The position numbers and the translations under genes were made by a program. Shown here in pieces: positions 1 to 39,873 of a DNA stretch of 64,000 bases. Within the stretch, counting starts at the first letter, position 1. Every line of letters starts with the position of its first letter. Origin of the DNA: a virus. The stretch lies in UHGV virus genome UHGV-0277313; one strand, 5' to 3'. The notes under the pieces were generated by a model, which worked only from the letters and a program-made list of their open reading frames with translations, ran no database searches and was not told the origin of the DNA.

Positions 1-258
1 AGACTCCACAAACATCAACGCCACTGTAAAACTTTCAACAAAATCCGTTGTTGCTTCTGTTTCCATTCCATTGTAAAGAATATGTTTAGATTCTACATCA
101 CAAACGAAAGTAAATGACTTTTTGCCTTTTAAGGTCTCTTTTTTCAATTGTTTCAATGTAACACTATCATTAAAATCAAATTGTAAATGTCCTTTAGCAA
201 GTGAATTTAAATCACTACCATCTTTTATCATTTCGTTTATGATGTTGTACAAATTCAT
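1..258 (-). CDS. hypothetical protein, 5' part only (ATG at 258, runs off window start)
   Basis: Minus-strand reading frame starting ATG at 256-258 (MNLYNIINEMIKDGSDL...), open to coordinate 1; protein-like composition. Confidence 0.4.
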   Translation of the reverse strand, partial: MNLYNIINEMIKDGSDLNSLAKGHLQFDFNDSVTLKQLKKETLKGKKSFTFVCDVESKHILYNGMETEATTDFVESFTVALMFVES

Positions 259-8435: not shown

Positions 8436-9200
8436 TTAAATTAAAGATTCACCATCGCAATAAGCAAATGCTGGACGATCACAACCATCAAACATCAAAC
8501 GTAAATTATTTCGAGGAGTTAAGATAATCTTAACAATCTCGCCATTTGAGCCTTCAGGTCTATTATGACGAAAATCGGAACAACACTTCTTAAAAGCTTT
8601 TTTTAAATTGGCATTGATAGGATTTGCACACAAAGCTTCACATTCAGCTAAAGTGATTTCTTTTCCATCAATGTCTGAACATTCTTCTTTTGGTTCAGGT
8701 GCAGATTCTAAAGAAACATCAACATCTTCAATAGAATTTGCTAATTGATCGGCCTGTGCAAAAGAATCTTGTGCATCTGCCATAAGATTATCCATTTCAG
8801 AAAAATCAACAGCGTTATCACTATCATCTTCCTTTAATGAACCATCAGTTTCTTGAGCGGCAACGACAGGTGCAGCAGGTTCTGGTTTCAAACCAATCTG
8901 CTGATCTGCCAATAACGCACCTTGCATATACACAAAGTTTGTTAAATCAACAACGCCATTAATAATCTCTGCTAGCGGCGTCAAATCACTAAACCCAGCT
9001 GCAGACCACGTATCACGCAAATGTTCCATATCAATTCTAATTTGCGCTAAAGAATGAATAACGCTGTCAATTTCATGAGGAATTTCAGACATCTTTGCTT
9101 CTTTTAAAGCAACAAGAGCCTGTTTGCTTTCCGCAAGCTTTTTCTTCTTTTCAGCCTTTTTAACAACTGATTCGAAGAGGGTATCAAGATAATTGACCAT
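8436..9200 (-). CDS. hypothetical protein with Cys-rich C-terminus
   Basis: 254-aa ORF; C-terminal CEALC...CCSDF...CDRPAFAYCDGE. Confidence 0.5.
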   Translation of the reverse strand: MVNYLDTLFESVVKKAEKKKKLAESKQALVALKEAKMSEIPHEIDSVIHSLAQIRIDMEHLRDTWSAAGFSDLTPLAEIINGVVDLTNFVYMQGALLADQQIGLKPEPAAPVVAAQETDGSLKEDDSDNAVDFSEMDNLMADAQDSFAQADQLANSIEDVDVSLESAPEPKEECSDIDGKEITLAECEALCANPINANLKKAFKKCCSDFRHNRPEGSNGEIVKIILTPRNNLRLMFDGCDRPAFAYCDGESLI

Positions 9201-13538: not shown

Positions 13539-13800
13539 TTAAATCAACTCCATCAACAATGTTTGAAACTCTTTTTTGTTCATTTCGCAAATCATCAATA
13601 TATGTATCTTTTATAGTTAAATACTTACCTAAATCAATTAAACGATCCAGACGAACAATAAAGCTATTAACAAAATCGCTCCCTAAATTTGATGCATCAC
13701 ACAATTCGCGAACAAAACCAATTAATTCTTCACGATCTTGAATAAATCTGACCGCCTGATTTTCATCAAAAACTGTTTTATTTTCTTCAGGTGTACTCAT
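13525..13800 (-). CDS. hypothetical protein
   Basis: 91-aa ORF. Confidence 0.4.
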   Translation of the reverse strand: MSTPEENKTVFDENQAVRFIQDREELIGFVRELCDASNLGSDFVNSFIVRLDRLIDLGKYLTIKDTYIDDLRNEQKRVSNIVDGVDLNALD

Positions 13801-14147
13801 GCTTCGTAATCCAAAATTCCTAATTTAAATTCACGTTCAGTGTCTTCATTATCATACCTAATTTTTACAAAATCAAGTAAATTTTTTATCACAATAAAAT
13901 CTGCACTGAACCACTCACCACTTAAATGGTTAAATTTTAGATAGCGATGCATGATCGACTCCAGAATTTTTGCAGGAGCTTCTTCAATTTCTACACAATA
14001 TTCAAGTGACAATTTCTTTGGGTTACCTGTCTGAAGTTGTCTGACCCTTCTTTTTGGATCCTTTGACAACCCTACTTTAAAAGCTTCACCATTCGAAATC
14101 ACATAAATAAAACTACTCATTTCTAAAATATTTAAATAACATTTCAT
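13797..14147 (-). CDS. T5orf172 / GIY-YIG-superfamily domain protein
   Basis: YVISNGEAFKVGLSKDPKRRVRQLQTGNP matches the T5orf172 (GIY-YIG-like) signature. Confidence 0.5.
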   Translation of the reverse strand: MKCYLNILEMSSFIYVISNGEAFKVGLSKDPKRRVRQLQTGNPKKLSLEYCVEIEEAPAKILESIMHRYLKFNHLSGEWFSADFIVIKNLLDFVKIRYDNEDTEREFKLGILDYEA

Positions 14148-14173: not shown

Positions 14174-17100
14174 TTAGATTTCAATTACTTCCTGTTTCTT
14201 CGAGTCATAAACAAAACTATCTTCAGCTTTAACCTCTTGTGTTTTAGCCTCAATATATGGAAACTCTACAGGAGTTGCATCTAAATATGCATTATTAACA
14301 GCACCTACGCAATTGTGTACAAACACATTACAATCCAATGCAAAATTATGAATTGAATTTAATACAATATCATATACAGGTTTTGTATTTTCAATTTTTG
14401 TAATCTGTGTAACATACACATGTAAATTTTCAACTTTAGATTTCTGTTCTGCTAATTTATCACCTAAATCGTGTTTTAGCAAATATCGTCTATATCCTTC
14501 TGGATTTACTTGCTTCATTAACGCTAACCCTTCGTTAATGATTTTTGTTCTAGCCCGTTTCATAACAGTACGATCATGAAAAGCTTTAATTTCACGACCA
14601 GTCATTGCATGTAAATTTGTATGTTCAATATTTGTTAAAGGGACCAAATTTTCAGGTCTATCATCATTTTTATTATGTGACTTGTGATGAATAACTGTAA
14701 ATTTACTACCATCAATTACAGCACGTTTTTTTGCTTCTGCAATAGCGTTTGACAATAAGTCTTGAGAAACAATTTTATATAAAAATTTCGGCGTTCCTTT
14801 AAATGGATTAACAACTTTTCTATATCTATCATGATAGTTTAATTCATGATAATAATTAAAAGGCATTAACTCATCATACAGAGCAATATCTTCTGCCTGT
14901 TTATATTCACCGCTTTTCATTAGAATTAAATGATCATCAGTACATGCAAAGGTTTTTCCGTTGCTTAAAGTAAACTGCAACAAAGTTTCAGGAATATGTT
15001 TTTCTAACACACGTTCAATCTTAACAGGCTTTAACTGTTTTGATTCACAATCACATGCTAAAACCCATTCATGCTCAATATCAGAATTGTATAACTCTTC
15101 TATTGTTAAAACTTTTCCAGACAATAAAAAGATTTTTGTATCGTAAGCCAAACAACTATCAGCCATATCTTTTTTGTGCGTTGTTACTAGTTTTTTATCT
15201 GCAACACCAATATAACCTAATTGTTCACGCAAATATGGGCAATCACCAACTTTAATACGTCCTGTAATCATCCACTGTGCAAAATTTAAATATGCCGTAA
15301 TATCACGATCTACTGATTGATAACGTACGTTCTCAAATTCATGATGCTGCTGTAATGATTGTCTTACATATTCAGAATTGTGAACGAACACACCAGCCGA
15401 TAATGCGAAATTTGGAGCTTTATCTATACTAATATCATACACATCTTCATATTCGTCTAGAAATTCAATATATTTGACTTTATGATTAATTCTATGCTTT
15501 TTGAACCACTCTTCACGATATTTAGTCTTTTCTTTGTTGATAGTTTCTAACGAAACAGTTTTTTTATAATTTTTTCCAAACAATTTTATTAAATGACCTC
15601 TAGAGCCAGGATATCTCACTTTCATTTTCGCAACATATTCTGGATTTTCCCATTTTAATAAATTTGCTTTTGTTATATTCTGTAATGCAATATCTGATGT
15701 TTTACTACCTAATCTCGGTTTTCTTGTTTTATTTAAAATTTTAATTCTTTCAGATTGCTCTTTAGCTCTTTTGCAATCATCTTTTTTAAACGATTTTTTT
15801 GTACAATCAATCATCTCTTGTTTATATTTTTTTGCAACTAATTTCCCAGATTCACTTTGACACTTCCTTGCATATGCTGATTTATTTTTATCTGCATAAA
15901 ATTTTTCTTTTATTTTCTTGCATTTGATAGATCTCTTCTTTCTGGCTTCTTCTGTTTGAGATTTTTCTACAACCCTATTCCAAACAGTTGGATCTAATCT
16001 TAATAATTCTTGAAAATGCTCAACATGCACTTTCAAATGTTCATCTTTTGTTAACAATACTAAATTGTTTGGATTATTATTTAATTTATTAAAATCTTTA
16101 TGGTGTATGTGAAAGCCTTTAGTTGACCCATATAAACTATTTGCTATTTTTCCATAAGTTAACCCCCAACTATTTGTTAAAGGGTTTAATACATTTTCAT
16201 AACCTTTATCAGAATATTTCCTATATAAAGGCATCAATGAATCACCACAATTTAAATATTGTGCCTGAATAAAATCACCATTCCTTAACATAAAACGATG
16301 ATCTAATGTGCATCTTATTTCTTCATCATTATCTAACACAACTTTCATAATGCGTTTTTTGCCATTATTTTTAGCATTAATAATTCGTCCAGGAACAACT
16401 TTTTTTGTTTTCAGGTCTAACGTATATGTAAACAACTCCTCGCCACTATTGAATCTTTCTAAAATATCTTTAAAAGAAACTTCCTCACCATTTAATAATG
16501 ATACTTTTGTATCACCTGTGAAACATTGAAACTGATCATACGAAATTGTCTTAATATACACACCTGCTTTATCACGCAAATCCAATGATAATTGTTTAAT
16601 AGCATCATGATCAATTCGGTTTGGCGCTGAAATCCATGATACAAAATCAGCCACAAAAACAGTTTGATGTTCTCCTAAATCATTAACAACATACTCTTTA
16701 TGCCATAACGAATATCCTGCTTGTGACGTTGACTGTGAAGCTAGATCAACGTGAACGAACCTCGGTGCATTTGGATACCTTGCTAAACGTGGTCCTAAAG
16801 TTGTTTCTTGAAATAATTCTTTTGGCAACTTATCAAGTAAAGGTATCTGATCACCTAAAGGCGCTTCTAAATGAACCTCTGGTAATAATTGTTTACAATC
16901 ACCGATACGTGACAAATCGTCAAAAGGTCTATCAGATGTATCTGTCGTTCTACCAGCAATGTTTTGAATAGCCGCTTCAATATTATTTTCAAACTCACGT
17001 CTATACTCAATAGGAACTTCTAATAATTCACAACCTGCAGGTGGTACATAATTTAGTTTTTCTAAAGGTACATCATTATATTCTTCAGGCAACACTTTTG

Positions 17101-17521
17101 ACGGGTGTGTTTTAGTACCAATATAAATCCAAAAATGTTTACCTGATAATCCTAAAGCATCACCCTTAACTTCCCAAATAGCTGGATCTAACAATAATGT
17201 TTCTGGATCGTCAGGTTTGATTTTATGTATATATTCCCAAACCATTCCTGATTTTGATTTAGATGATGAAATCAACGCACAATAAATTAATGATGAATTT
17301 AAAAAACGTGATCTAATACGTTCGCGTAAACCTGTATAAAGTTTAAACGCTTCAGATGAATCCTTCTCTTCAGCTTCGTCAAAAATTGAGTTACATGTTA
17401 CAACTCCAGACGATAATAGATAATTGTGCAAATCATTATTTACTTCTAAATTATATACTTTTACAGGTTGTTCAAGTTTTTTAGTTTTTATGGAATTAAT
17501 CTTCATAAGTAAAACTTTCAT
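14174..17521 (-). CDS. terL: terminase large subunit, C-terminal precursor fragment: split-intein C-half (Int-C) + Walker B + nuclease domain, interrupted by two HNH-type inteins
   Basis: Starts with DnaE-Int-C-like 44 aa (VYNLEVNNDLHNYLLSSGVVTCN then S); extein SIFDEAEE (Walker B) continues the upstream fragment's ...IGYSVFG, aligning with T4 gp17 RGNSFAMIYIDECAF; RFVHVDLASQ nuclease motif; two full inteins with TxxH and HNF...HN blocks. Confidence 0.8.
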   Translation of the reverse strand: MKVLLMKINSIKTKKLEQPVKVYNLEVNNDLHNYLLSSGVVTCNSIFDEAEEKDSSEAFKLYTGLRERIRSRFLNSSLIYCALISSSKSKSGMVWEYIHKIKPDDPETLLLDPAIWEVKGDALGLSGKHFWIYIGTKTHPSKVLPEEYNDVPLEKLNYVPPAGCELLEVPIEYRREFENNIEAAIQNIAGRTTDTSDRPFDDLSRIGDCKQLLPEVHLEAPLGDQIPLLDKLPKELFQETTLGPRLARYPNAPRFVHVDLASQSTSQAGYSLWHKEYVVNDLGEHQTVFVADFVSWISAPNRIDHDAIKQLSLDLRDKAGVYIKTISYDQFQCFTGDTKVSLLNGEEVSFKDILERFNSGEELFTYTLDLKTKKVVPGRIINAKNNGKKRIMKVVLDNDEEIRCTLDHRFMLRNGDFIQAQYLNCGDSLMPLYRKYSDKGYENVLNPLTNSWGLTYGKIANSLYGSTKGFHIHHKDFNKLNNNPNNLVLLTKDEHLKVHVEHFQELLRLDPTVWNRVVEKSQTEEARKKRSIKCKKIKEKFYADKNKSAYARKCQSESGKLVAKKYKQEMIDCTKKSFKKDDCKRAKEQSERIKILNKTRKPRLGSKTSDIALQNITKANLLKWENPEYVAKMKVRYPGSRGHLIKLFGKNYKKTVSLETINKEKTKYREEWFKKHRINHKVKYIEFLDEYEDVYDISIDKAPNFALSAGVFVHNSEYVRQSLQQHHEFENVRYQSVDRDITAYLNFAQWMITGRIKVGDCPYLREQLGYIGVADKKLVTTHKKDMADSCLAYDTKIFLLSGKVLTIEELYNSDIEHEWVLACDCESKQLKPVKIERVLEKHIPETLLQFTLSNGKTFACTDDHLILMKSGEYKQAEDIALYDELMPFNYYHELNYHDRYRKVVNPFKGTPKFLYKIVSQDLLSNAIAEAKKRAVIDGSKFTVIHHKSHNKNDDRPENLVPLTNIEHTNLHAMTGREIKAFHDRTVMKRARTKIINEGLALMKQVNPEGYRRYLLKHDLGDKLAEQKSKVENLHVYVTQITKIENTKPVYDIVLNSIHNFALDCNVFVHNCVGAVNNAYLDATPVEFPYIEAKTQEVKAEDSFVYDSKKQEVIEI
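14312..15154 (-). mobile_element. intein 5 of terminase (281 aa, HNH-type endonuclease domain)
   Basis: CLAYDTKIF...TDDH...VIHHKSHNKNDDRPENL...HNFALDCNVFVHN followed by +1 Cys. Confidence 0.75.
15377..16525 (-). mobile_element. intein 4 of terminase (383 aa, HNH-type endonuclease domain)
   Basis: CFTGDTKV...CTLDHRF...HIHHKDFNKLNNNPNNL...NFALSAGVFVHN followed by +1 Ser. Confidence 0.75.
17390..17521 (-). mobile_element. split-intein C-terminal half (Int-C, 44 aa) of terminase intein 3
   Basis: MKVLLMKINSIKTKKLEQPVKVYNLEVNNDLHNYLLSSGVVTCN closely resembles Npu DnaE Int-C (MIKIATRKYLGKQNVYDIGVERDHNFALKNGFIASN). Confidence 0.75.
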
Positions 17522-18458
17522 TGAAAATCAAATTAATTGTACTAACAAACTTAGATACTGAACCAAATTTTTTAATTAAACTATCCCACAAAGGCAAAGA
17601 TCTTTTGTTTTTATCCGAAAGATTTCTTGCTTTCTGATATGACAACTTGTTGACAACATTACCTTCAATTAATTTAACAACATTATAATATCTAGCTAAC
17701 GTAGCTAACTCTTGTTTTTCTCTTGCTCTTTCTGGATACAATTTATTAAACTCTTGCGTATTTTTTGAATGCAATTTTCGTGTAGAATCTGTAATTACCC
17801 TGTTTTTATTTGAATTAACAACTACATCGTGATGCCTTTGTGATGAATTAAATTTTCTCATCAATTCTCTTCCATGTTCTATACAATGCATCTTTCCTTC
17901 CTCTGAACGTAAATACTGTTTCATTCTTTTTGATGCACTTTCTCTACCCTCTATACTTTTGCTATAAGGTATTAAAACTTTTTTAACACGTTCTGCTCTT
18001 CTTTTTATAAACTCTTTATCGTTATTAATCTTGTTTAAATTATTTCTTGCACAAGATTTCATATATTCTGAAGACATCAGATCTTTCATTCTATTTCTAG
18101 CCCTATTCTTTGCTTCGACAGTTCTAGAATATTCAACAAGATGTTTTGCAGTATTTAGCAATTTTGCTGAATCACTTGATAAACCTTTCCCACCTTCAAC
18201 TAAATTATAACATTTATCATCATTTACAGTGTTACTATTAACAAGTACGCGTTCAAAGTTAAATGCATCTTTCTCTGAATCAAAAAAACGTAAAATTTTT
18301 AATTGAAAATTTTCTTTTCCATATTTTTTTATGGCTTTTTTTATTAAAACGCCAGAACCTAAATACCTATCATTAAGGTTATTTGTTGCATGTTTTCCAT
18401 AATAAAATTTACCGTTTATTAAATTAGTTATTTTATAAACAAAAATAAATTTACTCAT
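17496..18458 (-). CDS. free-standing GIY-YIG homing endonuclease located between the two halves of the terminase split intein
   Basis: N-terminus FIFVYKITNLINGKFYYGKH...NDRYLGSG is a canonical GIY-YIG motif; first ATG is 2 nt after upstream stop (track start 18470 is GTG); 3' end overlaps Int-C ORF start by 26 nt. Confidence 0.8.
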   Translation of the reverse strand: MSKFIFVYKITNLINGKFYYGKHATNNLNDRYLGSGVLIKKAIKKYGKENFQLKILRFFDSEKDAFNFERVLVNSNTVNDDKCYNLVEGGKGLSSDSAKLLNTAKHLVEYSRTVEAKNRARNRMKDLMSSEYMKSCARNNLNKINNDKEFIKRRAERVKKVLIPYSKSIEGRESASKRMKQYLRSEEGKMHCIEHGRELMRKFNSSQRHHDVVVNSNKNRVITDSTRKLHSKNTQEFNKLYPERAREKQELATLARYYNVVKLIEGNVVNKLSYQKARNLSDKNKRSLPLWDSLIKKFGSVSKFVSTINLIFNESFTYED

Positions 18459-18459
18459 A

Positions 18460-21213
18460 TTACATAACACCTAACAATTCGTCTTGATCAGTTAAATCTT
18501 TTGCATGCTTGCACCATTGATTATTATACATTATTAAAGTTTTATCAATTCCTATCTTTGGGTTTTTTATAGGGAATTTATGATCTGGCGTGCATCTTAT
18601 GCTCTGTCCGTTTTCCAACTCTATTTCAACTAACTCATTTACTTCTTTAGTACATTCACAATTATTAATATTATTCCAAGTAAACGTCCCATCAAGTTCT
18701 CTAGTTTTTACTTTATATTGATTACAACTTTTTGCAATATCTTCTATTCTTATATTTCCACTATCTGTTACAACTTCTGTATCACCTGTTAAACAACCAA
18801 AGACACTGTAACCAATAATGTGATTAATATTTGAACCTACCGACAAGTATACATTGTTTGGAAACCTAATGCCATTGCCTTGACGACAGAATGGAACCGG
18901 ATCATTTGGCCCAAACGAATCGAAAGCCGTCATTTTACGAACTTCATGAAAACATGGCGAATTACGAATCATTTCCAATACAGGCTTTAATGCAGTATCC
19001 TGCGCTTGCTGCAATGTAACAGAAATCATCAATGCAGATAAAACAGTATCAGGTGCAATATTGAATAATTTATGAGGCGATCTTAAACAACATATACGAT
19101 AAAGTGCATAAATTAAACCTCTACGCGCAATAGTTGATTTTCCTGAATTGTGTAAAATAATTAAATTTCCTGAATCCGTTACTACAGCAAAATTGTGATA
19201 AACAGGGACTTCTATATCATAGACCGCACATTTTTTATCAAGATCCTGCACATTTTTAACAGTAACACTACCATTATTTGCACACAATATATCATTCTTT
19301 TTTAAATCTTTCGCTTCAACATAATGACCTGAACTCAATAGAAATCTATGATCGCTCGTACATTCTAACGTTGTTCCGTCAGATAAACTAACACTTAATA
19401 CCTTTCTATTCTTTCCAGTACAACGCGCATTAAAAGCTTTTGCTTTTACAAATACATTATTTTTAATGTCATACGATAAAACATTAAATTCATTATCTTC
19501 ACCTAAACTTGCTAAATTTTCAATGGACACTAGTTTGTTATCAGACAATATTTTTGTATCACCAGACAAACAACCAATACTTCCACGAAAAACACAATTA
19601 GAAGCATATACCCCACTGTTAATTGCAAAATTATGATTGCCACGAATACAAACGTTGAAAGTGGATTCGCTTTTTTCTAACAATTTTATACTAACAATTT
19701 TATGATTATATTTGATTTCAACTTTTGTGTTAATATCAAACTTATTGCACCAGGCCTTTAAAGTCTTTACTTTAATACAAGCATTACTTGCACATTCCTC
19801 TATAGTATAACCACAACTTAATATATACCTAACTTCTTCTTCAGTCACCTTTTTTAATAAATCTTTATGATTGATATTATAAAGTTTTAACTTATTGATG
19901 ATATAACATCTGGAACAATTTAATTTCCTTTCAACTTCTCTTAATGAAAAACTATTTTTTAAAGTTTCAATAAAACGCTCCTTTGATATATCTAACCTTG
20001 CTGAAGGATTATTTTTTAAGTTTTTTTCTCTTTGTTTTATTCTTAAATTTTCTTTTAATAATGCACCTTTTTCGCTATTCCAAAAAGCAACAGAAATTTT
20101 GGAAGCATAATTATCTTGCAAATTCCTCAATGACATACGTTTTGAAGCCAACTTATGTTGTTGTTCGTCTGCCCACCTGTTTGCTGAACCTTTTTTTAGT
20201 CTATTTTTTACAGAATCAACAACTTCTTTGACACCATTCTTATAAGCTTCGTTATACAATTTTAATTGTTTTCTTGCGAATTTTGTATGATAATCTAGAT
20301 GTGTCTTACTATCTAAATAAATTAAATTAGTTGGATTGTTATTGTATTTGTTACCATCTTTATGGTGTATGACTTCATAACGTACCCTTTCACCTCTATT
20401 CTTTACAGGTGCTTTATATTTTCTGCCATATTTCCACAATGCACTTAAACGATGTGTGTATTCTGAACTTGCAACAGAAATTTTTGAAGGTATGATTACT
20501 TTTTCATATGATTTCACACCTCTTGCAGTTTTGTCTTCAACAAACCTCTCAAAAGGCATTAATGAATCACCGACTTTTAAATCCTTTGTCAATACCCACT
20601 TATTATTTCTATTCAAAAATTTATGATTTTCAGTACACTTAAAAACTTTTCCATTATCTAAAGTTATTTCATAAACTCTCTTTTCACCACTATATTGAAT
20701 ACCTTCTATTTCACCGGGTTCGACAGAATGTTTTTGTTCGTTCCACGTGTATACATAACAACCTTCATAACCAAATAAACATAAATCTGCTACAGTTTTT
20801 ACAGAACCATCCATTAATGGAATTTCTACATCACCAGTAACACATTCAAAATATTGATTAGATGGATCAAATATTTTTGCTAAAATCTGTCGCCAATAAG
20901 GATAAATAATGGCATACGAATTGCCCATATATGCATCATCTTTCAAGAATTCTTGAATAGTTGGCATATGTTTTTTATAAAGCAAAACATCAAGCTGATT
21001 TAAAAACTGTTCCTGCCCTGTATAATACAAATAGAAACCCATTCTTTTTTCAAAATCAGGCAACTGTTCTAAACGTGAACCACGGGGAATTTGTTCTGAA
21101 TAAAACGAATAAATATCATTAAATTCTTTTGAATGTATCAAGTTAATAATGTTATCTTGATCTTCAACTGAATATACAGGAATTTGATAATTATTGTGTA
21201 AAATCTCAACCAT
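18460..21213 (-). CDS. terL: terminase large subunit, N-terminal precursor fragment: ATPase Walker A region interrupted by two inteins, ending in split-intein N-half (Int-N)
   Basis: Exteins YFE / CVFRGSIG / SGKSTIARRG...IIGYSVFG give P-loop GSIGSGKST and an ATPase domain aligning with T4 gp17; three Hint N-terminal blocks (CVTGDVEIP, CLSGDTKIL, CLTGDTEVV) with TxxH blocks. Confidence 0.8.
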   Translation of the reverse strand: MVEILHNNYQIPVYSVEDQDNIINLIHSKEFNDIYSFYSEQIPRGSRLEQLPDFEKRMGFYLYYTGQEQFLNQLDVLLYKKHMPTIQEFLKDDAYMGNSYAIIYPYWRQILAKIFDPSNQYFECVTGDVEIPLMDGSVKTVADLCLFGYEGCYVYTWNEQKHSVEPGEIEGIQYSGEKRVYEITLDNGKVFKCTENHKFLNRNNKWVLTKDLKVGDSLMPFERFVEDKTARGVKSYEKVIIPSKISVASSEYTHRLSALWKYGRKYKAPVKNRGERVRYEVIHHKDGNKYNNNPTNLIYLDSKTHLDYHTKFARKQLKLYNEAYKNGVKEVVDSVKNRLKKGSANRWADEQQHKLASKRMSLRNLQDNYASKISVAFWNSEKGALLKENLRIKQREKNLKNNPSARLDISKERFIETLKNSFSLREVERKLNCSRCYIINKLKLYNINHKDLLKKVTEEEVRYILSCGYTIEECASNACIKVKTLKAWCNKFDINTKVEIKYNHKIVSIKLLEKSESTFNVCIRGNHNFAINSGVYASNCVFRGSIGCLSGDTKILSDNKLVSIENLASLGEDNEFNVLSYDIKNNVFVKAKAFNARCTGKNRKVLSVSLSDGTTLECTSDHRFLLSSGHYVEAKDLKKNDILCANNGSVTVKNVQDLDKKCAVYDIEVPVYHNFAVVTDSGNLIILHNSGKSTIARRGLIYALYRICCLRSPHKLFNIAPDTVLSALMISVTLQQAQDTALKPVLEMIRNSPCFHEVRKMTAFDSFGPNDPVPFCRQGNGIRFPNNVYLSVGSNINHIIGYSVFGCLTGDTEVVTDSGNIRIEDIAKSCNQYKVKTRELDGTFTWNNINNCECTKEVNELVEIELENGQSIRCTPDHKFPIKNPKIGIDKTLIMYNNQWCKHAKDLTDQDELLGVM
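18463..18795 (-). mobile_element. split-intein N-terminal half (Int-N, 111 aa) of terminase intein 3
   Basis: CLTGDTEVV...IRCTPDHKF... ends at ORF stop without C-terminal HN block; complementary Int-C begins the next terL fragment. Confidence 0.75.
19147..19572 (-). mobile_element. intein 2 of terminase (142-aa mini-intein, no endonuclease domain)
   Basis: CLSGDTKIL...LECTSDHRF...VYHNFAVVTDSGNLIILHN then +1 Ser of SGKST. Confidence 0.75.
19597..20844 (-). mobile_element. intein 1 of terminase (416 aa, HNH-type endonuclease domain)
   Basis: CVTGDVEIP...FKCTENHKF...VIHHKDGNKYNNNPTNL...GNHNFAINSGVYASN then +1 Cys; codon positions checked against sequence. Confidence 0.75.
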
Positions 21214-21242
21214 TAGAAACCTATTAGAAAATTTTTAATGAA

Positions 21243-29021: not shown

Positions 29022-30272
29022 TTATACATCAATTTTGTCTAAAGCTTCATCAAGTTTACTATCAAGTTCATCAGATTTTGCTTTTGATTCGCTTGACGTT
29101 TCTTTTGCCTTGAGCAAGTCATCTAATTCAAGATACAACTTTTTTAACAAAGTTTCATATTTAATTCGCCACATTTCATGTTCAGCAGATTTATTATAAT
29201 AAGCTGCATATTCTATCAGTTTCATCAAATACGGATCTTCACGCAACTTAACAGTCAACTTTTTAGTTCCGTTGATTTTGCAATATTCATTATTATGATG
29301 ATCAATTACTGTAATCCATGCACCAGAACCAGTTATAAAAGGTTGAGCATTACCATTTTCCATCGCAAAAGTTGCAGCAGAAGCGTATTTGTCAAACCCT
29401 TCAATTAGATTCATAATAACAGGTACAGGTTTAGCAACACCTGTCACTTTGTTTTTCAACATATCCAATTCAACTTCGTACCCAATGATTGGATTTTTCA
29501 TATTGTCATCTTTATAAATAGGCGCACGTCTTTTAACAAACACTCGTGATGAACAATAATGTTTTAGAGCCTGACCACCAGTTGTTGACCACTTCATGTT
29601 TCCATACATGTCTTTACCAGCTTCACGAACCTGTTGAATGATGATAGCTGAATGACCATATTGGGCACAACGATAGTTTAATTTTCTTAATTCACGTGAA
29701 TTAATTCGAGCATTTAACATCATACCAGACCCATAAACATCGTCACTTTCCATTTCTTGACGAGGACCTGCTGCTGTCAACGTATCCCAAACAATCAGTA
29801 AAGGTACTTTGTCACCATACTTTTCGTATACTTTTGTTTGTACTTTAGCAATTTGGTCGTAACCTTCTTCCATAATTGCTGTTTCAAATACAATAACACG
29901 ACTTAAATCAATACCAATCATTTCACAACGAATTTTATCCATCGTTGATTCTGATTCAATACGTAAACACAATGCATGTTTATTTGTTTTAAGCCAACTA
30001 GCAACAACACTATCACATAAAGTTGATTTACCATGCGATTCAGGGCCTGAAATTTCATATGTACGACCTCTTGTAATGCCACCACCAAAAGCAAGATCAA
30101 GCGGAATCAAACCTGTGGAAATCATTTTACTAGGATCAACAGATTCAATGTCATTAGCACTAATTGCTTCAATTTCTTTGTCACCACATAACAAATCACT
30201 AACAAGATCAATATTGTCTAGTTCAGATTCATCTTCGATACGTTTTACTGGTTCTTCTTTCTTTTTAGCCAT
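29022..30272 (-). CDS. uvsX: UvsX/RecA-family recombinase
   Basis: GLIPLDLAFGGGITRGRTYEISGPESHGKST (Walker A) and GGQALKHYCSSRVFVKRR align with RecA [26 protein letters not shown] and GGNALKFYASVRLDIRR. Confidence 0.85.
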   Translation of the reverse strand: MAKKKEEPVKRIEDESELDNIDLVSDLLCGDKEIEAISANDIESVDPSKMISTGLIPLDLAFGGGITRGRTYEISGPESHGKSTLCDSVVASWLKTNKHALCLRIESESTMDKIRCEMIGIDLSRVIVFETAIMEEGYDQIAKVQTKVYEKYGDKVPLLIVWDTLTAAGPRQEMESDDVYGSGMMLNARINSRELRKLNYRCAQYGHSAIIIQQVREAGKDMYGNMKWSTTGGQALKHYCSSRVFVKRRAPIYKDDNMKNPIIGYEVELDMLKNKVTGVAKPVPVIMNLIEGFDKYASAATFAMENGNAQPFITGSGAWITVIDHHNNEYCKINGTKKLTVKLREDPYLMKLIEYAAYYNKSAEHEMWRIKYETLLKKLYLELDDLLKAKETSSESKAKSDELDSKLDEALDKIDV

Positions 30273-30330
30273 TAGAATTCCTCATTAAAAATGAAGGGCA
30301 GACAATATTTATTGCCTACCCTTCGGCAAA

Positions 30331-31635
30331 TTAATCAACGATACCCAATTCTTTTGTATGATCAATACCTGTCAACGCCTTAATGCACAATGCACAATTT
30401 GAAGAGAAAGGATCGATTAAACAATCGTAATTATTTAAAGCATCGTATTTGTCATGACGACCAAAACACTGCATTTTACAGCCATCACGATATTTTTCAA
30501 CAATCGCCTGTTGCTGTGGTGTTAAATGATCATAGTCAATATTTACAGACGGCGCAGCTGCAACTGGCTGTTCTGGTTGAGTGACTGTTCCTGCAACCGC
30601 CTGTGTGTCAAAAGGGATTTCGTCATCCAAAATTTCTGAATTCTGCATTCCCTGATTATACGTATTAAATGTCGGCTGCTGCACATTTGGTGCTAATGAT
30701 ACATTCTGAACAGGCTGCTGCATTGGCATCTGAACAGGTTGCTGAACAAACTGCGGTTGCATATTCATTGCCGGTACTGCCTGCTGCAACGGATTCACAA
30801 TAGGAATCTGTTTAGTAACAGCAACAGGTGCAGGTGCTTCTGAAACAGATACAGCAGACATCTGGTTAACTGAATTTTCAATCAAACCTTTGGCACGCAA
30901 AATCTTTTCTTTTACTTCTTTTGCTGTCTGTTTAATTGTCATCATTTTTTCATCAGACGGAAGTTTAAAAATCTTCTTCAACTGAATTCTTTCGTTTTCA
31001 GCAAGCAATTCATCACGATTTTCAACTGAACCACCCAAAATACCACACTGTGGCATTGAAGAATCCATCAGCTTAACATTCCAATGTTTTTCTTTCTCGC
31101 CACGTGACAAAACATAGGCGACGCCAACATTAGGATCTAAAACATCAGGAGAATCAGGACTGTTATAAAGCGTTGCAATGCTCTGGAAAACAGGCAAAGG
31201 AACTTTAAAAAATGAAATCTTATTCATTGGTAAAGAATCTTCATTTGGTGCTTCCATCATTAAGACTTTCATTGCAACCATTTTTGAAGCCTTCATTTTC
31301 CAAAAACCTTTAACATCAACGCCCATATTTTCTAATTCGCGAAAAGCTTCGCAAACAGGGCAGATAGCACCTGGTGCATCAAAATTCTCTACACAGGGGA
31401 CGTATTTTGATTTCTCATCATCATTAAATTTAATCCAATGATTACCGACAAACTCACCAAAAAAATTATTCTGATCGGCCGTCATTGGCATAATACGAAA
31501 AACATAACGGCCAAATCTTTCCAAATTAAAGAATTTAGATTTTTCATATTCTCCCGATTCGTTTTTCTGACCATTAACCGTTTCAAACTTTTTATTCAAA
31601 ATTGCCAGTCTTGCTGGATCTAACGCTACTTTCAT
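30331..31635 (-). CDS. gp32-like single-stranded DNA-binding protein with Q/P-rich C-terminal extension
   Basis: H...C...CPVC zinc-binding pattern (NHWIKF...CVENFDAPGAICPVCE) and SFFKVPLPVFQ resemble T4 gp32 core; adjacent to uvsX. Confidence 0.65.
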   Translation of the reverse strand: MKVALDPARLAILNKKFETVNGQKNESGEYEKSKFFNLERFGRYVFRIMPMTADQNNFFGEFVGNHWIKFNDDEKSKYVPCVENFDAPGAICPVCEAFRELENMGVDVKGFWKMKASKMVAMKVLMMEAPNEDSLPMNKISFFKVPLPVFQSIATLYNSPDSPDVLDPNVGVAYVLSRGEKEKHWNVKLMDSSMPQCGILGGSVENRDELLAENERIQLKKIFKLPSDEKMMTIKQTAKEVKEKILRAKGLIENSVNQMSAVSVSEAPAPVAVTKQIPIVNPLQQAVPAMNMQPQFVQQPVQMPMQQPVQNVSLAPNVQQPTFNTYNQGMQNSEILDDEIPFDTQAVAGTVTQPEQPVAAAPSVNIDYDHLTPQQQAIVEKYRDGCKMQCFGRHDKYDALNNYDCLIDPFSSNCALCIKALTGIDHTKELGIVD

Positions 31636-33573: not shown

Positions 33574-34536
33574 TTAAGATTGCGTTATTTTATTGAAACT
33601 CTTGAAGTATAATTTTAAGAAATGTCTGTACTCAATTCTCTTTTTATACCTATCAGAATACGAATCAGGCTTCATATTATCAGGATCTTCGTCGCCATTT
33701 AATTTAATTATTGTAACTGTTCCATTATAAAATTTTCTTAAGGTTTTGTAATTATTTATAATTTCAGCTCGTGAAACATCCCCGTCGAAACTAAACGAAA
33801 TTTCCGTTGGGTTTTTCGACGCGATAATTCTTGCTTGCGAATCAGCTAATACTTTACCAAAAATAGATACTGCAGTCACATCTTCAGGTGTATTACGGTT
33901 AGCTGCAATACCCGAAAAAACACCTTCAGTAATAATTACTTTACCATTTGTTGATACATTCTGAATATTCCAAACAGCAAATGATTTGTGACTTCCTTGA
34001 GGATTGATATATTTTGCTTCAGGGTTTTCTGATACATAATCACGTGCAACTAAATAAACAACGTTATTATTCAAATCAAACGTCGGAACAATAATCCTTC
34101 CCCGATATCTTCCTTGCCCAATACGGATATCGTATTTTTTAATTTCTTCAAACGTTATATTTCTTGAACGCAGATACTCAACTGCATTAACAAATGAACG
34201 ATCTATTTTTACTGAAATATTGTCCAAATCAATCAATTCAGCTTGAATTAACAGACCACTCGGTGATGTATATTTTATACGCTGTTTAGTATCAATGTTG
34301 TCTAGTTTATATCTTAATAATGCACCACCATTTACATAACCTTGTAATAGCTGATCTACTCTTCCAGACCACCCACATCGATAACAATGAAATACGTTTT
34401 TTTCAAGTGATAAACTTAATTTATAATCATCATAACGTTTACCTAACATTTTACAATTTGGACAATGTGTCACATATTGATCGACATTCGATGTTAAGCT
34501 TACATCTCTCAAACTTTCAACGCGTACATCACACAT
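33574..34536 (-). CDS. DNA primase (gp61-like: zinc ribbon + TOPRIM)
   Basis: CPNCK...HCYRCGWSG zinc ribbon; TOPRIM-like IITEGVFSGIAANR...FSFDGD; directly downstream of DnaB-like helicase as in T4 41-61. Confidence 0.65.
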   Translation of the reverse strand: MCDVRVESLRDVSLTSNVDQYVTHCPNCKMLGKRYDDYKLSLSLEKNVFHCYRCGWSGRVDQLLQGYVNGGALLRYKLDNIDTKQRIKYTSPSGLLIQAELIDLDNISVKIDRSFVNAVEYLRSRNITFEEIKKYDIRIGQGRYRGRIIVPTFDLNNNVVYLVARDYVSENPEAKYINPQGSHKSFAVWNIQNVSTNGKVIITEGVFSGIAANRNTPEDVTAVSIFGKVLADSQARIIASKNPTEISFSFDGDVSRAEIINNYKTLRKFYNGTVTIIKLNGDEDPDNMKPDSYSDRYKKRIEYRHFLKLYFKSFNKITQS

Positions 34537-35408
34537 TATTTAACACCATTAGCAGCTTTTTTCATTTCCTTAACGTCATACGGCTCACATTCTTTCACTT
34601 GATTAGCCGCTTTATCAAAGTTTACATACACAGTTGTATTTGTTTTACCACGACGGGCTTTAGCAACATATAATCTCATTTTACCATTGTCAGACTCTTC
34701 ACGAGTTTGGTTTAATGTAACAATGCCATATGCCACATGCGCTTTTCTTGATGAATCAGCTAACATGTCTTGCGATGCCACTTCATTGTCTTCAGTGTTC
34801 CATGCAGCCTTTCCTAACTGTGAACCTGTAACAACAGGACAATTAAATTGGTCAGCTAACGCCTTCAAGTCATAAAAAATTGTACCCATTTCTTCATATG
34901 TACTTTCAGATGACCGTCGCGTTTGTTTGTTCGGTAACATTAAATCTGCATAGTCTACAATAATTAAACCAGGTTCAAAATTTTCCAAAGAATGTAACTT
35001 CGTCAAATATGTTCTCAAATGATTAGCAGATACTGTTTTATTAGAATAATAAATAGTCCTTACATTAGGTGCCCAATATTTAATTTTCTGCACACGCTGT
35101 TTGTATTTTTCAATTTGTGATTCATCCAATAAATCTCTCATTGACATACCAGTTGAACAGGAAATGATATTTGATAACACTTCCTTTTCAGACCACTCAA
35201 ACGAAAAATACACAACCGGGCGTCTCTGAAACATTGCCTGATATGCCAAAAAGCTCAAGAACTTACTTTTTCCACGACCAGGCGCTCCGCAGTTTTTACT
35301 GTAAAAACAATGACTTAGCTCGAAGTTGTGATACTTATTATTCACCGTCAAATTGTAAACAGGCACCTTTTCATCAAGGTGAATGCGTTTTTTATTTACT
35401 AATTTCAT
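34536..35408 (-). CDS. gp41/DnaB-like replicative helicase, C-terminal fragment (split-intein Int-C + RecA-like ATPase domain)
   Basis: MKLVNKKRIHLDEKVPVYNLTVNNKYHNFELSHCFYSKN (Int-C) then CGAPGRGKSKF (Walker A) and DnaB-like ATPase fold; ATG at 35408 with AAGGAAG RBS (track start 35411 is TTG). Confidence 0.8.
   Translation of the reverse strand: MKLVNKKRIHLDEKVPVYNLTVNNKYHNFELSHCFYSKNCGAPGRGKSKFLSFLAYQAMFQRRPVVYFSFEWSEKEVLSNIISCSTGMSMRDLLDESQIEKYKQRVQKIKYWAPNVRTIYYSNKTVSANHLRTYLTKLHSLENFEPGLIIVDYADLMLPNKQTRRSSESTYEEMGTIFYDLKALADQFNCPVVTGSQLGKAAWNTEDNEVASQDMLADSSRKAHVAYGIVTLNQTREESDNGKMRLYVAKARRGKTNTTVYVNFDKAANQVKECEPYDVKEMKKAANGVK
35292..35408 (-). mobile_element. split-intein C-half (Int-C, 39 aa) of helicase
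   Basis: DnaE-Int-C-like sequence ending ...HCFYSKN followed by +1 Cys. Confidence 0.75.
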
Positions 35409-35518
35409 CAATTACTTCCTTACTTAAACCCAACTTCAGAACATAATCCAAATCGTTTTTGTATAAAAACTTCAGTGATGTTATCACAAAATCAGACAGT
35501 TCGTCAACCTTTAATGTT

Positions 35519-36475
35519 TTAAAATTCATCATCTTCCGACAAATCTTCCGCTTTTTTATATGCAACACCTTCTGACCATATAACTTTTTCATCACCTTTT
35601 TTTGGATTTGTAATTCTAAATTTATGATCAGGTGTACATTTAATTGTATACCCATTATCAAAAGTTAATTCGATCAATTCGTCTGTATCTCTAGTTTTCC
35701 ATACATTATAAATATCAGTTTCGAAAGAGTTTCCATTCTCATCAACTGAATAGGCTTTTTTATCTTTAAAGTTGTTTACCAAATCTTTGATTTCGATGAA
35801 ACCTTTATTTGTTTTCACTTTTGTATCACCTGTTAAACAGAATACATACAGTTCACCTTTTGCAATGCCGCCACCAAAAGCGTCATCTAATGAAGGAATG
35901 CCTGTTGTGAACATATTATCTTTGCCATAACTGTCACGTAACATTTGAGGTAATTCATCAAGTGAACTAACCAAATCTAACCCAAGATTTGTTCCTGCAC
36001 CAACAGACAATGCATCATCGATAATAGATACGGCTTTTTCGTAATCATTTGTTTTATCATACATATCGACCAATTTACCAATTGCATCACGCATTGCAAC
36101 GCTTTTAGCAAAATCTAAAGCTTGATCTTTTATGTACTGTGCGTCTTCAATAACAGTTGTTGTTAAGCTACGAATCACTGAAGCAAAATTTTCTTGTTCG
36201 ACAATAGGAATTGCATATTTACTCGTATAATTATTCAATTCAGTCAACAAAACAGATTCAGTCGGTTTTGTATGATACTGTTCGTAATATGAAATAATCC
36301 ACTGACAAATATTTTGCAAATAGACATTATCAAAAAAAGAAGGTTTAATTAATTCCACGCCAACTGTTGATAAATAGGTGAAATCTTGAAATAATAATGC
36401 AACAATCTTTTTCTGCATTTCAACTTCAAAATTATATGTTGTATCCTGTACAACTTCTTCGTTTTCATTGTCCAT
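35519..36475 (-). CDS. gp41/DnaB-like replicative helicase, N-terminal fragment (DnaB N-domain + split-intein Int-N)
   Basis: DnaB N-terminal-like domain; ...GGGIAKGELYVF then CLTGDTKVKT...IKCTPDHKF... to stop. Confidence 0.8.
   Translation of the reverse strand: MDNENEEVVQDTTYNFEVEMQKKIVALLFQDFTYLSTVGVELIKPSFFDNVYLQNICQWIISYYEQYHTKPTESVLLTELNNYTSKYAIPIVEQENFASVIRSLTTTVIEDAQYIKDQALDFAKSVAMRDAIGKLVDMYDKTNDYEKAVSIIDDALSVGAGTNLGLDLVSSLDELPQMLRDSYGKDNMFTTGIPSLDDAFGGGIAKGELYVFCLTGDTKVKTNKGFIEIKDLVNNFKDKKAYSVDENGNSFETDIYNVWKTRDTDELIELTFDNGYTIKCTPDHKFRITNPKKGDEKVIWSEGVAYKKAEDLSEDDEF
35522..35839 (-). mobile_element. split-intein N-half (Int-N, 106 aa) of helicase
   Basis: CLTGDTKVKTNKGFIEIKDL...TIKCTPDHKFRI...; Cys codon position verified (aca at 35837-35839 on + strand). 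Confidence 0.75.
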
Positions 36476-38559: not shown

Positions 38560-39873
38560 TCACTTATCTAAACTATTATAAATTTTATATAAATTTACCA
38601 TAGATTTAGATGACTTGAGTCTAAAAACTTCAGAATCAAAAGATTCTAAAGAACGTCTATATTTCACTTTAGATGTTTTTGTTATATCAAACAGTTCTTT
38701 CCAATTCTTATAAACCCAGCTTGATGATTCCTTCCATAGGTTGAACAAACTGGTTTTGTCTATAAGCTCTGGATAGAACTGACCTTTGATATATTTGAAC
38801 ATTGCTCTACGGGCAATTTCCAAACTTGCTGCTATTGGATCTGGTGCTTCATTACATATGTTTCCAATGAATGAAGAATAAACAGGGTTGACTTCGACGA
38901 AGTCTATTTTGTTTAGAAGAAAGTGCTTTCTTAAAGCAGAAACCAGTGCTTCATGTTTCCATTTATTCTTCGTTAATCTATTGAATGATTTACCTTTTCC
39001 TGTATTCCCAGTTTTGAAAGACAAATCTTCAATGCCAAATTTACCAACTTTATAATACTTACATTTCTGGATGATATCTTTAGCTATCTCTTTAAGCTCA
39101 AAGATTTGTTTGTTATTCTGGTGTTTACTTTTAGCATCATTTGAAGATTTGTGTAAGTTCTTTGTGAAATATGACAAATCATACTGCTCTTCAAGCAAAA
39201 TCTTTCTCTTATCACCAGTCCATTTAGAAATAGAAAATCCAATATAGTTTGGATTCATATCTATAGCACCAACTATATTTGGATTTCCAACATAATTGGA
39301 ACAATAGATTTTGGAATCATCAAAGGTTATGCAGATTCTATCCAACTTTAATTCAACACTAAAGTTAGATAACTTCTGCTTACATTGTTCTTCAAGGTTG
39401 ATTAATTCATATAAATAATTCTTATGTAAAATAGGCAATTTCAAGTTGATATGTTTTGATTTAGAAAACTTAAAGATTATCTGGTTATTCGAAATATCCA
39501 ACTGGAATTTACGGTTTCCGCCTTTTGACGTTTCACCTTGTGAATAACCCCCTAAAAGCCTATTTTCTTTGAAAATATCTTTATCTAACTTATGTTTTAA
39601 TCTTTGATAAAAAGAAAATTTGCCACCGAAAATAACCTTTTCTTTATTGGTTAAAAATATGTAATTTGCTTTCTTAATAGCACACTGAATAAACCAAGAA
39701 TCCGAAGGTACATTTGATAAACTTTTAGAAAGTAATCTAATGTCTTTTTCAGATTTGGAATCTTTATATCTGTTGAAAGCATATCTTACCATATTAGACG
39801 ACTTCCGAATTTCATCTTTGATGAAGCTTCGGTCGTCATCTGAACATGTATATGGTAAGTTAATCGTTTTCAA
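38560..39873 (-). CDS. TnpB/OrfB-like RuvC-fold nuclease lacking the zinc finger (paralog 1)
   Basis: RuvC-I AIDMNPNYIGFS, RuvC-II FGIEDLSFK, VEVNPVYSSFIGN (cf. TnpB VDPRYTSQ) and RuvC-III-like NEAPDPIAASLEIARRA (cf. DRDVNAAINIARRG); no CxxC pairs between II and III. Confidence 0.6.
   Translation of the reverse strand: MKTINLPYTCSDDDRSFIKDEIRKSSNMVRYAFNRYKDSKSEKDIRLLSKSLSNVPSDSWFIQCAIKKANYIFLTNKEKVIFGGKFSFYQRLKHKLDKDIFKENRLLGGYSQGETSKGGNRKFQLDISNNQIIFKFSKSKHINLKLPILHKNYLYELINLEEQCKQKLSNFSVELKLDRICITFDDSKIYCSNYVGNPNIVGAIDMNPNYIGFSISKWTGDKRKILLEEQYDLSYFTKNLHKSSNDAKSKHQNNKQIFELKEIAKDIIQKCKYYKVGKFGIEDLSFKTGNTGKGKSFNRLTKNKWKHEALVSALRKHFLLNKIDFVEVNPVYSSFIGNICNEAPDPIAASLEIARRAMFKYIKGQFYPELIDKTSLFNLWKESSSWVYKNWKELFDITKTSKVKYRRSLESFDSEVFRLKSSKSMVNLYKIYNSLDK

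Follow-up and report, generated by a model that had tools for sequence, protein, structure and literature searches.

We analysed a window of 64 kb belonging to the jumbo phage contig UHGV-0277313, which is ~277 kb long (the window is the whole stretch of 64,000 nucleotides studied here, and all the coordinates below are positions in it). The subject of this text is its terL locus, where the gene of the large subunit of the terminase (TerL) is found in two parts. Every gene of this locus lies on the minus strand, and the list of open reading frames (ORFs) with their translations shows three ORFs in three separate frames: a 5' gene of terL ending with the N-terminal half of an intein (Int-N), a gene of the GIY-YIG endonuclease family, and a 3' gene of terL beginning with the C-terminal half of the intein (Int-C). 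A preliminary description of this DNA had placed the arrangement at 17390-18795. These coordinates, which run exactly from the end of Int-C to the start of Int-N, and all the sequence details that came with them turned out to be correct. We shall argue that the locus is very probably a genuine fractured terL, in which a split intein and a GIY-YIG gene form a single unit; this degree of confidence concerns the identity of the locus, and it is lower where the activity of the products is concerned.

Layout of the terL locus and its empty-site counterpart

The features of the locus are the following, I1, I2, I4 and I5 being the contiguous inteins of the gene:

21213..18460, minus strand: 5' gene of terL, 917 amino acids, made of the N-extein pieces, I1, I2 and the terminal Int-N; Pfam matches Intein_splicing (9.9e-34) and HNH_3
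20844..19597, minus strand: I1, contiguous intein of 416 amino acids with HNH, before Walker A
19572..19147, minus strand: I2, mini-intein of 142 amino acids inside the Walker A loop, GSIG|SGKST
18795..18463, minus strand: Int-N, 111 amino acids, with Cys1 in CLTGDTEVV, block B CTPDHKF and a tail of ~35 amino acids to ...DELLGVM
18462..18460, minus strand: TAA stop codon of the 5' gene, directly after Int-N
18458..17496, minus strand: GIY-YIG gene, 320 amino acids, ATG at 18458, protein start MSKFIFVYKITNLINGKFYYGKH
17521..17390, minus strand: Int-C, 44 amino acids, MKV...SGVVTCN (39 amino acids if the start is M6)
17521..17496, minus strand: overlap of the endonuclease gene and Int-C, 26 nucleotides (nt) counted from the first ATG (17521)
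17389..17375, minus strand: codons of SIFDE, with the +1 Ser nucleophile and the Asp-Glu of Walker B, adjoining the splice site
17521..14174, minus strand: 3' gene of terL, 1115 amino acids, made of Int-C, the C-extein, I4 and I5
16525..15377, minus strand: I4, contiguous intein of 383 amino acids with HNH, in the C-terminal part of terL
15154..14312, minus strand: I5, contiguous intein of 281 amino acids with HNH, in the C-terminal part of terL

A single spacer nucleotide (18459) separates the TAA of Int-N from the ATG of the GIY-YIG gene; the start had been described as lying 2 nt past the upstream stop, and the ATG does begin at the second nucleotide after TAA. At the other end of the gene, the overlap of 26 nt given by the preliminary description holds if the first ATG of the 3' ORF is used. 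Related loci favour the second in-frame ATG (M6, at 17506), and counted from there the overlap is 11 nt, ATGAAGATTAA. The N-terminus of the 3' ORF reads MKVLLMKINSIKTKKLEQPVKVYNLEVNNDLHNYLLSSGVVTCN, that is, Int-C followed by SIFDEAEE. Int-N, the GIY-YIG gene and Int-C together form a composite unit of 1406 nt (18795..17390), whose insertion point is G|S in ...GYSVFG|SIFDEAEE..., the Asp-Glu of Walker B being found 3 residues downstream. The GC content is 33.9% in the exteins, 28-30% in the four contiguous inteins, 29.7% in Int-N, 27.2% in the endonuclease gene and 24.2% in Int-C, with 31.2% for the window; the mobile parts of the locus are richer in AT than the host gene.

When the five inteins are taken out, terL encodes a protein of 655 amino acids. 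This spliced TerL aligns end to end with intein-free TerLs, with no gap at any of the five junctions, and matches PHROG 2 (terminase large subunit) at 2.8e-7. In a tblastn search it aligned in one piece, with 26-40% identity over 82-91% of the length, to annotated TerLs from phage isolates (Xanthomonas phiXF1, Maribacter Colly and Molly, Rhizobium RHph, Yersinia GN1), and several of these genes adjoin portal or prohead genes. In the alignment of TerLs, the Walker A motif GSIGSGKST is conserved, the preceding Asp of Walker B is present in 7 of the 8 sequences, and the Glu that follows it (E253) is invariant, as are H461/D463, D533 and D606 in the C-terminal part. This confirms the placing of the insertion, in the preliminary description, 3 residues before the Walker B of terL, since SIFDEAEE with its invariant Glu follows the site. 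The solved terminases were not reached by sequence: the spliced TerL and a profile of 8 TerL sequences gave P-loop noise only. Hence the assignment rests on homology and motifs, and on these grounds the host gene is that of a terminase large subunit. All five inteins are located at catalytic motifs; I4 and I5 are placed after two conserved Asp motifs, which their sites adjoin and which presumably belong to the nuclease. The published maximum of inteins per gene was four until 2023, then five in the Prp8 of Anaeramoeba (PMC10710043), and the five inteins of terL equal it. At least one unannotated metagenomic protein, P0002, also has five or more.

The window is 100% identical to a metagenome scaffold of 276,920 bp in ENA (ERZ28615576 scaffold_19), and the exact endonuclease protein was found on 15 independently assembled contigs, which rules out a one-off assembly error. 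We compared the locus with that of L003 (IMG/VR UViG_3300013426_000013, 313,762 bp), whose nucleotide identity to the window is ~85-91%. The terL of L003 is one ORF of 1651 amino acids in which the Walker B site is uninterrupted, ...GYSVFGSIFDEAEE... The break points given by blastn are 18797/17389 in the window and 7999/8001 in L003; the 30 amino acids on each side of the site are identical in the two phages, and the nucleotide differences found there are all synonymous. As the alignment breaks exactly at 18795 and 17390, the unit of 1406 nt is a discrete insertion. The empty allele also fixes the splice junctions independently of motifs: Cys1 and Asn155 are the ends of the intein, with Ser at +1. 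This ~90%-identical sister thus provides a natural pair of filled and empty sites, together with an exact candidate target for the endonuclease, which in an allele of the L003 type is GGTTATAGTGTCTTTGGG|TCGATCTTTGACGAAGCG. As to a signal of co-conversion or immunity in the flanks, 3 of the 6 flanking codons differ synonymously, about the number to be expected from a background pS of 0.4-0.5 (pS and pN being the proportions of synonymous and nonsynonymous differences), and no clustering can be inferred from them.

The terL of L003 contains I1, I2 and I5, and lacks I4 as well as the split intein. It has an extra mini-intein at 8637..9106 (CFSEDTKV...GVVVSN|C), inserted at NAPRF|CHVDLAS next to the invariant His-x-Asp motif; the corresponding site of the window (~16754) is empty, and at +1 L003 has Cys where the window has Val. 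When L003 is included, six intein sites of terL are occupied in this lineage, three of which are polymorphic between phages ~90% identical. The extein segments of the two phages differ by a pS of 0.39-0.56 and a pN of 0.000-0.008, with a pN/pS of 0.00-0.02 before as well as after the split; only the C-terminal tail of TerL (45 amino acids) departs from this, with a ratio of 0.087. Both extein halves are under strong purifying selection, as one would expect of a functional TerL. The pS of I1 and I2 is 0.20, about half that of the flanking exteins (0.39-0.50), while I5 (0.63) does not stand out from its flanks. These values point to an exchange of I1 and I2 between the lineages that is younger than the divergence of the host gene.

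The intein halves and the endonuclease

Once fused, the two halves (155 amino acids) match Intein_splicing of Pfam with 36.0 bits, the threshold being 35.8 (7.8e-9), and the best match of the fused sequence in PDB is the NrdJ-1 split intein (3.4e-6), the split points of the two being in register. An alignment of 29 mini-intein relatives, which we call A2, was used as input for an AlphaFold2 model of the fused sequence (the model does not describe a two-chain complex). The mean pLDDT, or predicted local distance difference test score, is 95.5 and the predicted TM-score (pTM) is 0.89; the sole dip (79) is found at residues 111-120, that is, at the junction of the halves. With Foldseek, the model matches Npu DnaE (TM 0.77/0.84), the NrdJ-1 fusion (0.78/0.80) and also Ssp DnaB. 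There are 64 matches in PDB at E <= 0.001, and the best 50 of these 64 are all inteins or intein-like (BIL) domains. According to this model a complete HINT domain results from the two halves, which are divided at the canonical loop of endonuclease insertion. The comparison with NrdJ-type inteins and with Npu DnaE, which the preliminary description had called for, is therefore favourable in both cases, by sequence for the first and by Foldseek for the second. The net charge of Int-N is -6 and that of Int-C is +3.

Cys1, T69-x-x-H72 and N155, the four and only invariant columns of A2, are all present in the split intein, and with Ser at +1 the residue set of class 1 is complete. The auxiliary Asp/His pair of class 1 inteins is replaced by an Asn/Cys pair: block F, VYNLEVNNDLHNY (VYN), has Asn where Asp is usual, and block G, GVVTCN, has a penultimate Cys where His is usual. 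We surveyed blocks F and G in 157 motifs taken from the 150 best database relatives. The Asp/His pair occurs in 108 of them; an Asn in block F occurs in 5, never with a penultimate His. The same combination, Asn...Cys-Asn|Ser, is found in the contiguous intein of P0003, while I1 of the same terL associates the Asn of block F with a penultimate Ser (conserved in L003) and the split intein of the helicase described below associates it with Lys. Because Asn covaries in this way with residues other than His, the sequences suggest a working natural variant rather than decay, and the Asn/Cys pair may be a mechanistically distinct variant of class 1 splicing. As a separate observation on the same 157 motifs, the residues of block F other than Asp and Cys (Asn, Thr, Gln and Gly) are listed solely with a penultimate residue that is not His (Lys, Cys, Gly, Ser or Asp).

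These two residues can also be read in another way. If the halves associated and did not splice, they would be a dimerisation module, and TerL would work as two chains with a HINT domain beside Walker B. Both the block F and the penultimate positions, where Asn and Cys are found here, normally assist splicing, and there is a precedent in the NrdA of Aeh1, which is fractured by an endonuclease and has no intein: its parts assemble non-covalently and it is still functional (PMC2677866). We nevertheless hold this reading to be very unlikely. Cys1, the Thr-x-x-His of block B, the terminal Asn and Ser+1 are all there, and the association of Asn with a residue other than His recurs in contiguous inteins of large proteins that have several of them, including I1, where a failure of splicing would inactivate the protein. 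Moreover, a retained domain of 155 amino acids located 3 residues from Walker B, in the core of the ATPase, would probably not be tolerated.

The ORF lying between the halves encodes a catalytic domain (approximately residues 1-95) followed by a long putative DNA-binding region. It matches PF01541 of Pfam (3.3e-5, 24.5 bits for a gathering cutoff of 22.6), the homing endonucleases of PHROG 314 (3e-33), the group I intron endonucleases of TIGR01453 (7.6e-9 over residues 6-216) and, marginally, SegE_GIY-YIG of Pfam. Its relatives, 33-60% identical in the catalytic domain, are present in >520 stretches of IMG/VR. Among 28 non-redundant homologs, 16 columns are invariant in the subfamily (Y8, Y19, G21, H23, D30, Y32, G34, G36, Y46, G47, N50, F51, E69, N85, G89 and G90), and the protein of the window keeps the 16 of them. 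The disruption of catalytic residues, which the preliminary description had named as evidence against its proposal, is not what these columns show, with the reservation that no equivalent of the Arg27 of I-TevI can be aligned. When a profile of the subfamily is compared to PDB, the sole match is the catalytic domain of I-TevI (1LN0/1MK0, ~1e-3). This profile was needed to reach I-TevI: a phmmer search of PDB with the endonuclease gave only matches to HUWE1, which we discarded as spurious. The Tyr of GIY, the Tyr of YIG and the Asn are in register with Y6, Y17 and N90 of I-TevI, and the invariant Glu is one residue off E75; Arg27 of I-TevI falls in a segment absent from the subfamily, and R31 of the protein of the window is not conserved among its homologs.

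In a scan by regular expressions of the 80 nearest loci with a homolog of the endonuclease, none was found to sit between intein halves. Such a result agrees with a free-standing endonuclease gene having invaded an intein. The ORF in the middle is apparently an intact GIY-YIG homing endonuclease, from a phage family whose members, as far as the compared sequences tell, are mostly free-standing. Folds and homology both agree with the preliminary description of a split intein with canonical halves, flanking a free-standing and apparently intact GIY-YIG gene.

Relatives, expression and a proposed mode of homing

Exhaustive searching of 1.84 billion representatives by HMMER, with the fused intein as query, gave 685 matches at E < 1e-3, none of them above 48% identity. 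Pattern scans for Int-N in IMG/VR and in the JGI metagenome contigs found relatives at <=37% identity only, the fused intein matched no more than a fragment of itself of 100 amino acids in a word-indexed search of proteins, and megablast of the locus against the GenBank phages gave no match. Several relatives bear on the origin of the locus. In P0064, a homolog of TerL, a contiguous mini-intein interrupts ...NSF|CDE..., and its site lies two residues further downstream than that of the window. P0082, at the locus L084, has the intein of P0064 in split form, and between the halves lies an ORF of 48 amino acids whose tail (PIWESLIKRF...FIYEN*) matches the C-terminal tail of the endonuclease of the window (...FTYED*) with an E value of 3e-6. 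Two more TerLs, P0028 (locus L085) and P0073, have their split one residue further upstream (...IF|CAFMDE), and in L085 a gene of 554 amino acids of zinc-finger/NUMOD3 type separates the halves. P0016 and P0080 are N-parts of DnaB-type helicases which end with a related Int-N. From the insertion sites of these relatives, the strand leading into Walker B is a recurrent target in this TerL family. Every stage of gene breaking is represented: there are contiguous mini-inteins, halves separated by a full endonuclease gene, and halves with a remnant of this gene left between them. The window, P0064 and L084 together illustrate the gene-breaking model of Dassa within one host protein family.

In other relatives the endonuclease is in frame with the intein. 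The contiguous intein of P0005, in GyrA, contains in frame a GIY-YIG domain of the YLGSG...KYG subfamily to which the endonuclease of the window belongs, and in P0007 and P0096 Int-N is fused directly to an I-TevI-like domain. We found no description of in-frame GIY-YIG inteins in the intein literature examined; they may represent what fractured genes become in the end, once "healed". Their existence lends some weight to the idea that the window, too, has one contiguous intein with an in-frame GIY-YIG domain, its split being due to a sequencing error or bypassed by programmed frameshifting. We rejected this idea, which is extremely improbable. With three frames, two independent frame changes and the read-through of TAA would be needed, and the endonuclease protein is identical on the 15 contigs, which come from independent assemblies. 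Furthermore the overlap codes both for the conserved tail of the endonuclease and for the N-terminus of Int-C, and this dual coding is conserved in the distant L084: the sequence is ...TATGAAGATTAA... here and ...TATGAAAATTAA... there, 11 nt of which 10 are identical (ATGAARATTAA).

One may also ask whether the fractured locus is a decaying relic, the endonuclease being inactive or directed elsewhere than to terL, and the difference with L003 resulting from a loss or from a replacement by recombination rather than from homing. Two alleles do not allow the polarity to be read; in L084 the endonuclease is deleted down to its remnant while the split intein persists; no relative of the intein exceeds 48% identity among the 1.84 billion representatives, nor is any close one found in IMG/VR or JGI; and none of the 80 nearest endonuclease homologs lies between intein halves. 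We consider this reading unlikely all the same. The ORF of the endonuclease has its full length (320 amino acids) with 16 of the 16 invariant residues, and the boundaries of the insertion are exact to the codon, which argues for a homology-directed exchange rather than a random deletion. In addition, the low pS of I1 and I2 (0.20, as compared to 0.39-0.50 in the exteins) suggests a recent exchange of inteins in the phage population.

We then considered how the three ORFs may be expressed. A scan of 13500-22500 found no terminator-like site; there being no terminator between the three ORFs, they are probably co-transcribed. A Shine-Dalgarno-like TAGGTG is located 9 nt upstream of the ATG of the endonuclease, within the coding sequence of Int-N, and resembles the AGGT/AGGA motifs which precede 19 of the 34 long ORFs of the window. 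The ORF of Int-C has no such Shine-Dalgarno motif, and hence its translation probably proceeds by termination-reinitiation at the overlap ATGAAGATTAA. The Int-C of the related fractured terL loci begins with MKIK..., the counterpart of which here is the second ATG (17506, MKIN...), and the real Int-C may consist of the 39 amino acids counted from this ATG. The RNA folds near the starts of the endonuclease and of Int-C are no better than those of shuffled sequences (z = 0.19 and -0.52), and there is no TATAAATA late-promoter element on the coding strand at 14001-21400. Of the translational coupling proposed in the preliminary description, the tight stop/start junctions can be retained as compatible with it; the coupling itself we infer.

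Since Int-C has no Shine-Dalgarno motif of its own, and since the overlap is kept in L084 even with the remnant of 48 amino acids, the C-half of TerL may need the translation of the endonuclease. It is tempting to go further and to suppose that packaging is hard-wired to the translation of the endonuclease, the C-half of TerL being made only by ribosomes fresh from the endonuclease ORF, that the split inteins of TerL and of the helicase are orthogonal and that the Asn/Cys variant is a distinct one. This whole is a tentative proposal, and rather a doubtful one.

For the fractured terL that we favour, we propose the following mode of action. The three ORFs would be carried by one transcript. The endonuclease would owe its translation to its own TAGGTG site, or to ribosomes that reinitiate one nucleotide past the stop of Int-N, and the ORF of Int-C and of the C-part of TerL would owe it to termination-reinitiation at the conserved overlap. 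The negative Int-N (-6) would associate with the positive Int-C (+3), and Cys1, the Thr and His of block B, the terminal Asn and Ser+1 would carry out a class 1 protein trans-splicing. ...GYSVFG would in this way be joined to SIFDEAEE..., the predicted spliced junction being ...IIGYSVFGSIFDEAEEK, and trans-splicing together with the cis-splicing of the four other inteins would yield the TerL of 655 amino acids. During a co-infection, the endonuclease would cut an intein-less terL near the insertion site and recombinational repair would copy the whole unit into the cut allele, while the carrier genome would be protected by the resident intein, which interrupts the target. The window also encodes, on the minus strand at 29022..31635 and 33574..34536, proteins which are RecA/UvsX-like (RecA 5.8e-32), gp32-like and primase-like. 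This recombination and replication module, of the style of T4, could do the double-strand break repair needed by homing.

A number of points weigh against this interpretation. Trans-splicing and cleavage by the endonuclease are predicted activities. Approximately 76% of the related motifs have Asp in block F and approximately 76% have a penultimate His, and splicing could be slow or impaired in a protein which has neither. The Arg27 of I-TevI seems to have no alignable invariant counterpart in the GIY-YIG subfamily. The start codon of Int-C is ambiguous (17521 or 17506), and the promoter scan is at the level of chance, with 58 promoter-like sites found for 49.8 +/- 7.4 expected. With two sequences, the constraint on the exteins is not assignable to the fractured lineage alone, and with two alleles a gain of the element is indistinguishable from a loss. 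Finally, a second terL is possible, the window being 64 kb of a genome of 277 kb.

Companion inteins and comparison with known systems

A second split intein is present in the window, in the gene of a helicase:

36475..34536, minus strand: region of the split intein of the DnaB/gp41-like helicase; DnaB_C 1.1e-22
36475..35519, minus strand: helicase N ORF, ending in an Int-N of 106 amino acids (35839..35522)
35411..34536, minus strand: helicase C ORF, beginning with an Int-C of 40 amino acids (MMKLVNKKRIHLDEKVPVYNLTVNNKYHNFELSHCFYSKN) followed by CGAPGRGKS, in Walker A

The two ORFs of the helicase are 107 nt apart and there is no endonuclease gene between them. With 40% identity (E 1e-31), this split intein is the closest relative of that of terL found anywhere; both have an insert after block B, an Asn in block F and a penultimate residue other than His. 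Two split inteins 40% identical in one phage must be orthogonal if chimeras of TerL and helicase are to be avoided, and their presence in one cell makes it possible to test how cross-reaction is avoided. The canonically split TerL intein, with its Ser+1 and Asn/Cys, and its paralog of the helicase are candidate orthogonal tools for trans-splicing.

Other features lie near these genes. A helicase of ResIII/DEAD type (36515..38479, minus strand) has a contiguous mini-intein in its P-loop region, AATG|CFVGDTLIL...GVIVHN|SGKTE, and the window contains in total at least seven inteins in three genes. An ORF of 116 amino acids of T5orf172/MUG113 type (13797..14147, minus strand; MUG113 5.1e-11, T5orf172 1.9e-7) is found 26 nt past terL; in L003 (10550..13031), an ORF of 721 amino acids and ~2.1 kb separates terL from a small ORF at the corresponding position. 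The ORF at 38560..39873, which looked transposase-like by eye, was dropped, as it had no Pfam match.

Dassa et al. 2009 described 26 fractured-gene loci of the architecture found here (gp41-1..8, NrdJ-1, IMPDH-1, NrdA-2 and others; PMC2677866), in which the intervening genes are GIY-YIG or Vsr-like. In 15 loci the 3' end of the endonuclease gene overlaps the start of Int-C by 6-69 bp, and a phage terminase is among the fractured hosts, with an atypical split leaving an Int-C of 122 amino acids (PMC2677866). The preliminary description had recognized the fractured-gene layout, and the locus of the window does show all the features which define it in Dassa et al. 2009. It had also taken the GIY-YIG gene between the halves for a novelty; this has to be withdrawn, as this gene, the overlap and a terminase already figure in that work (PMC2677866). 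As in those loci, the halves are adjacent on the same strand with a GIY-YIG gene between them, and the overlap is here 11 or 26 nt. Int-N has 111 amino acids here as compared to 88-105 in Dassa et al. 2009, and Int-C 44 (or 39) as compared to 33-54. The signs of the charges, negative for Int-N and positive for Int-C, are those of NrdJ-1, IMPDH-1 and NrdA-2 (PMC2677866). Among the endonuclease genes of the Global Ocean Sampling (GOS) loci, 15 of 16 have a 5' untranslated region (UTR) with a hairpin, often with TATAAATA (PMC2677866). In contrast, the endonuclease gene of the window has one spacer nucleotide in place of a 5' UTR, no significant hairpin and no TATAAATA. It also differs from the loci of Dassa et al. 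2009 by its host, a TerL with a canonical split, by its Asn/Cys residues, by its location in an assembled phage contig of 277 kb and by its empty-site sister.

Other naturally split inteins are known in phage terminase genes from metagenomes, namely GOS-TerL, AceL-TerL and the consensus Cat-TerL, and GOS-TerL derives from the type of fractured terminase locus of Dassa et al. 2009 (PMC2677866). It is the position of the split which sets the intein of the window apart: GOS-TerL and AceL-TerL are atypical, with an Int-N of 25-37 and an Int-C of 104-122 amino acids, whereas the halves are here canonical (111 + 44). With Npu DnaE, Ssp DnaE and NrdJ-1 (4kl5, 1zd7, 8ubs) it has in common the HINT fold and the split position (TM 0.77-0.78, root mean square deviation 2.2-2.3 A), as well as Cys1, Thr-x-x-His and the terminal Asn. 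The identity to these inteins is 24-25%, and the window differs from them by an Asn instead of Asp in block F, a penultimate Cys instead of His, a +1 Ser instead of Cys, and an extra segment of ~20 residues after block B, FPIKNPKIGIDKTLIMYNNQW, also found in the helicase paralog and in L084.

The endonuclease resembles I-TevI and the Seg-type enzymes by its N-terminal GIY-YIG domain (FVY...YYG...E69...N85) followed by a long DNA-binding region. Unlike I-TevI, its subfamily has invariant H23, D30 and Y32 and a KKYGKENF motif, with no alignable Arg27, and unlike those of I-TevI and Seg, its gene lies within an intein and not in a group I intron or between genes. As for the host protein, TerL is the most intein-rich phage protein, and in mycobacteriophages its inteins cluster at the P-loop, Walker B and other ATPase motifs (Kelley et al. 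2016, PMC5050341). Those inteins are contiguous, usually one per gene and all in the ATPase (PMC5050341), whereas the terL of the window has five, one of them split and two in the C-terminal part.

The original fractured genes were mostly known from truncated assemblies of GOS reads, and the locus described here is a complete one, in its context within a phage contig of 277 kb. What is new with respect to the published systems is the canonical split in a TerL, the Asn/Cys residues, the abutting junctions devoid of UTR, the genomic context and the empty-site sister, and also the five inteins in one gene and the second, paralogous split intein in a DnaB helicase.

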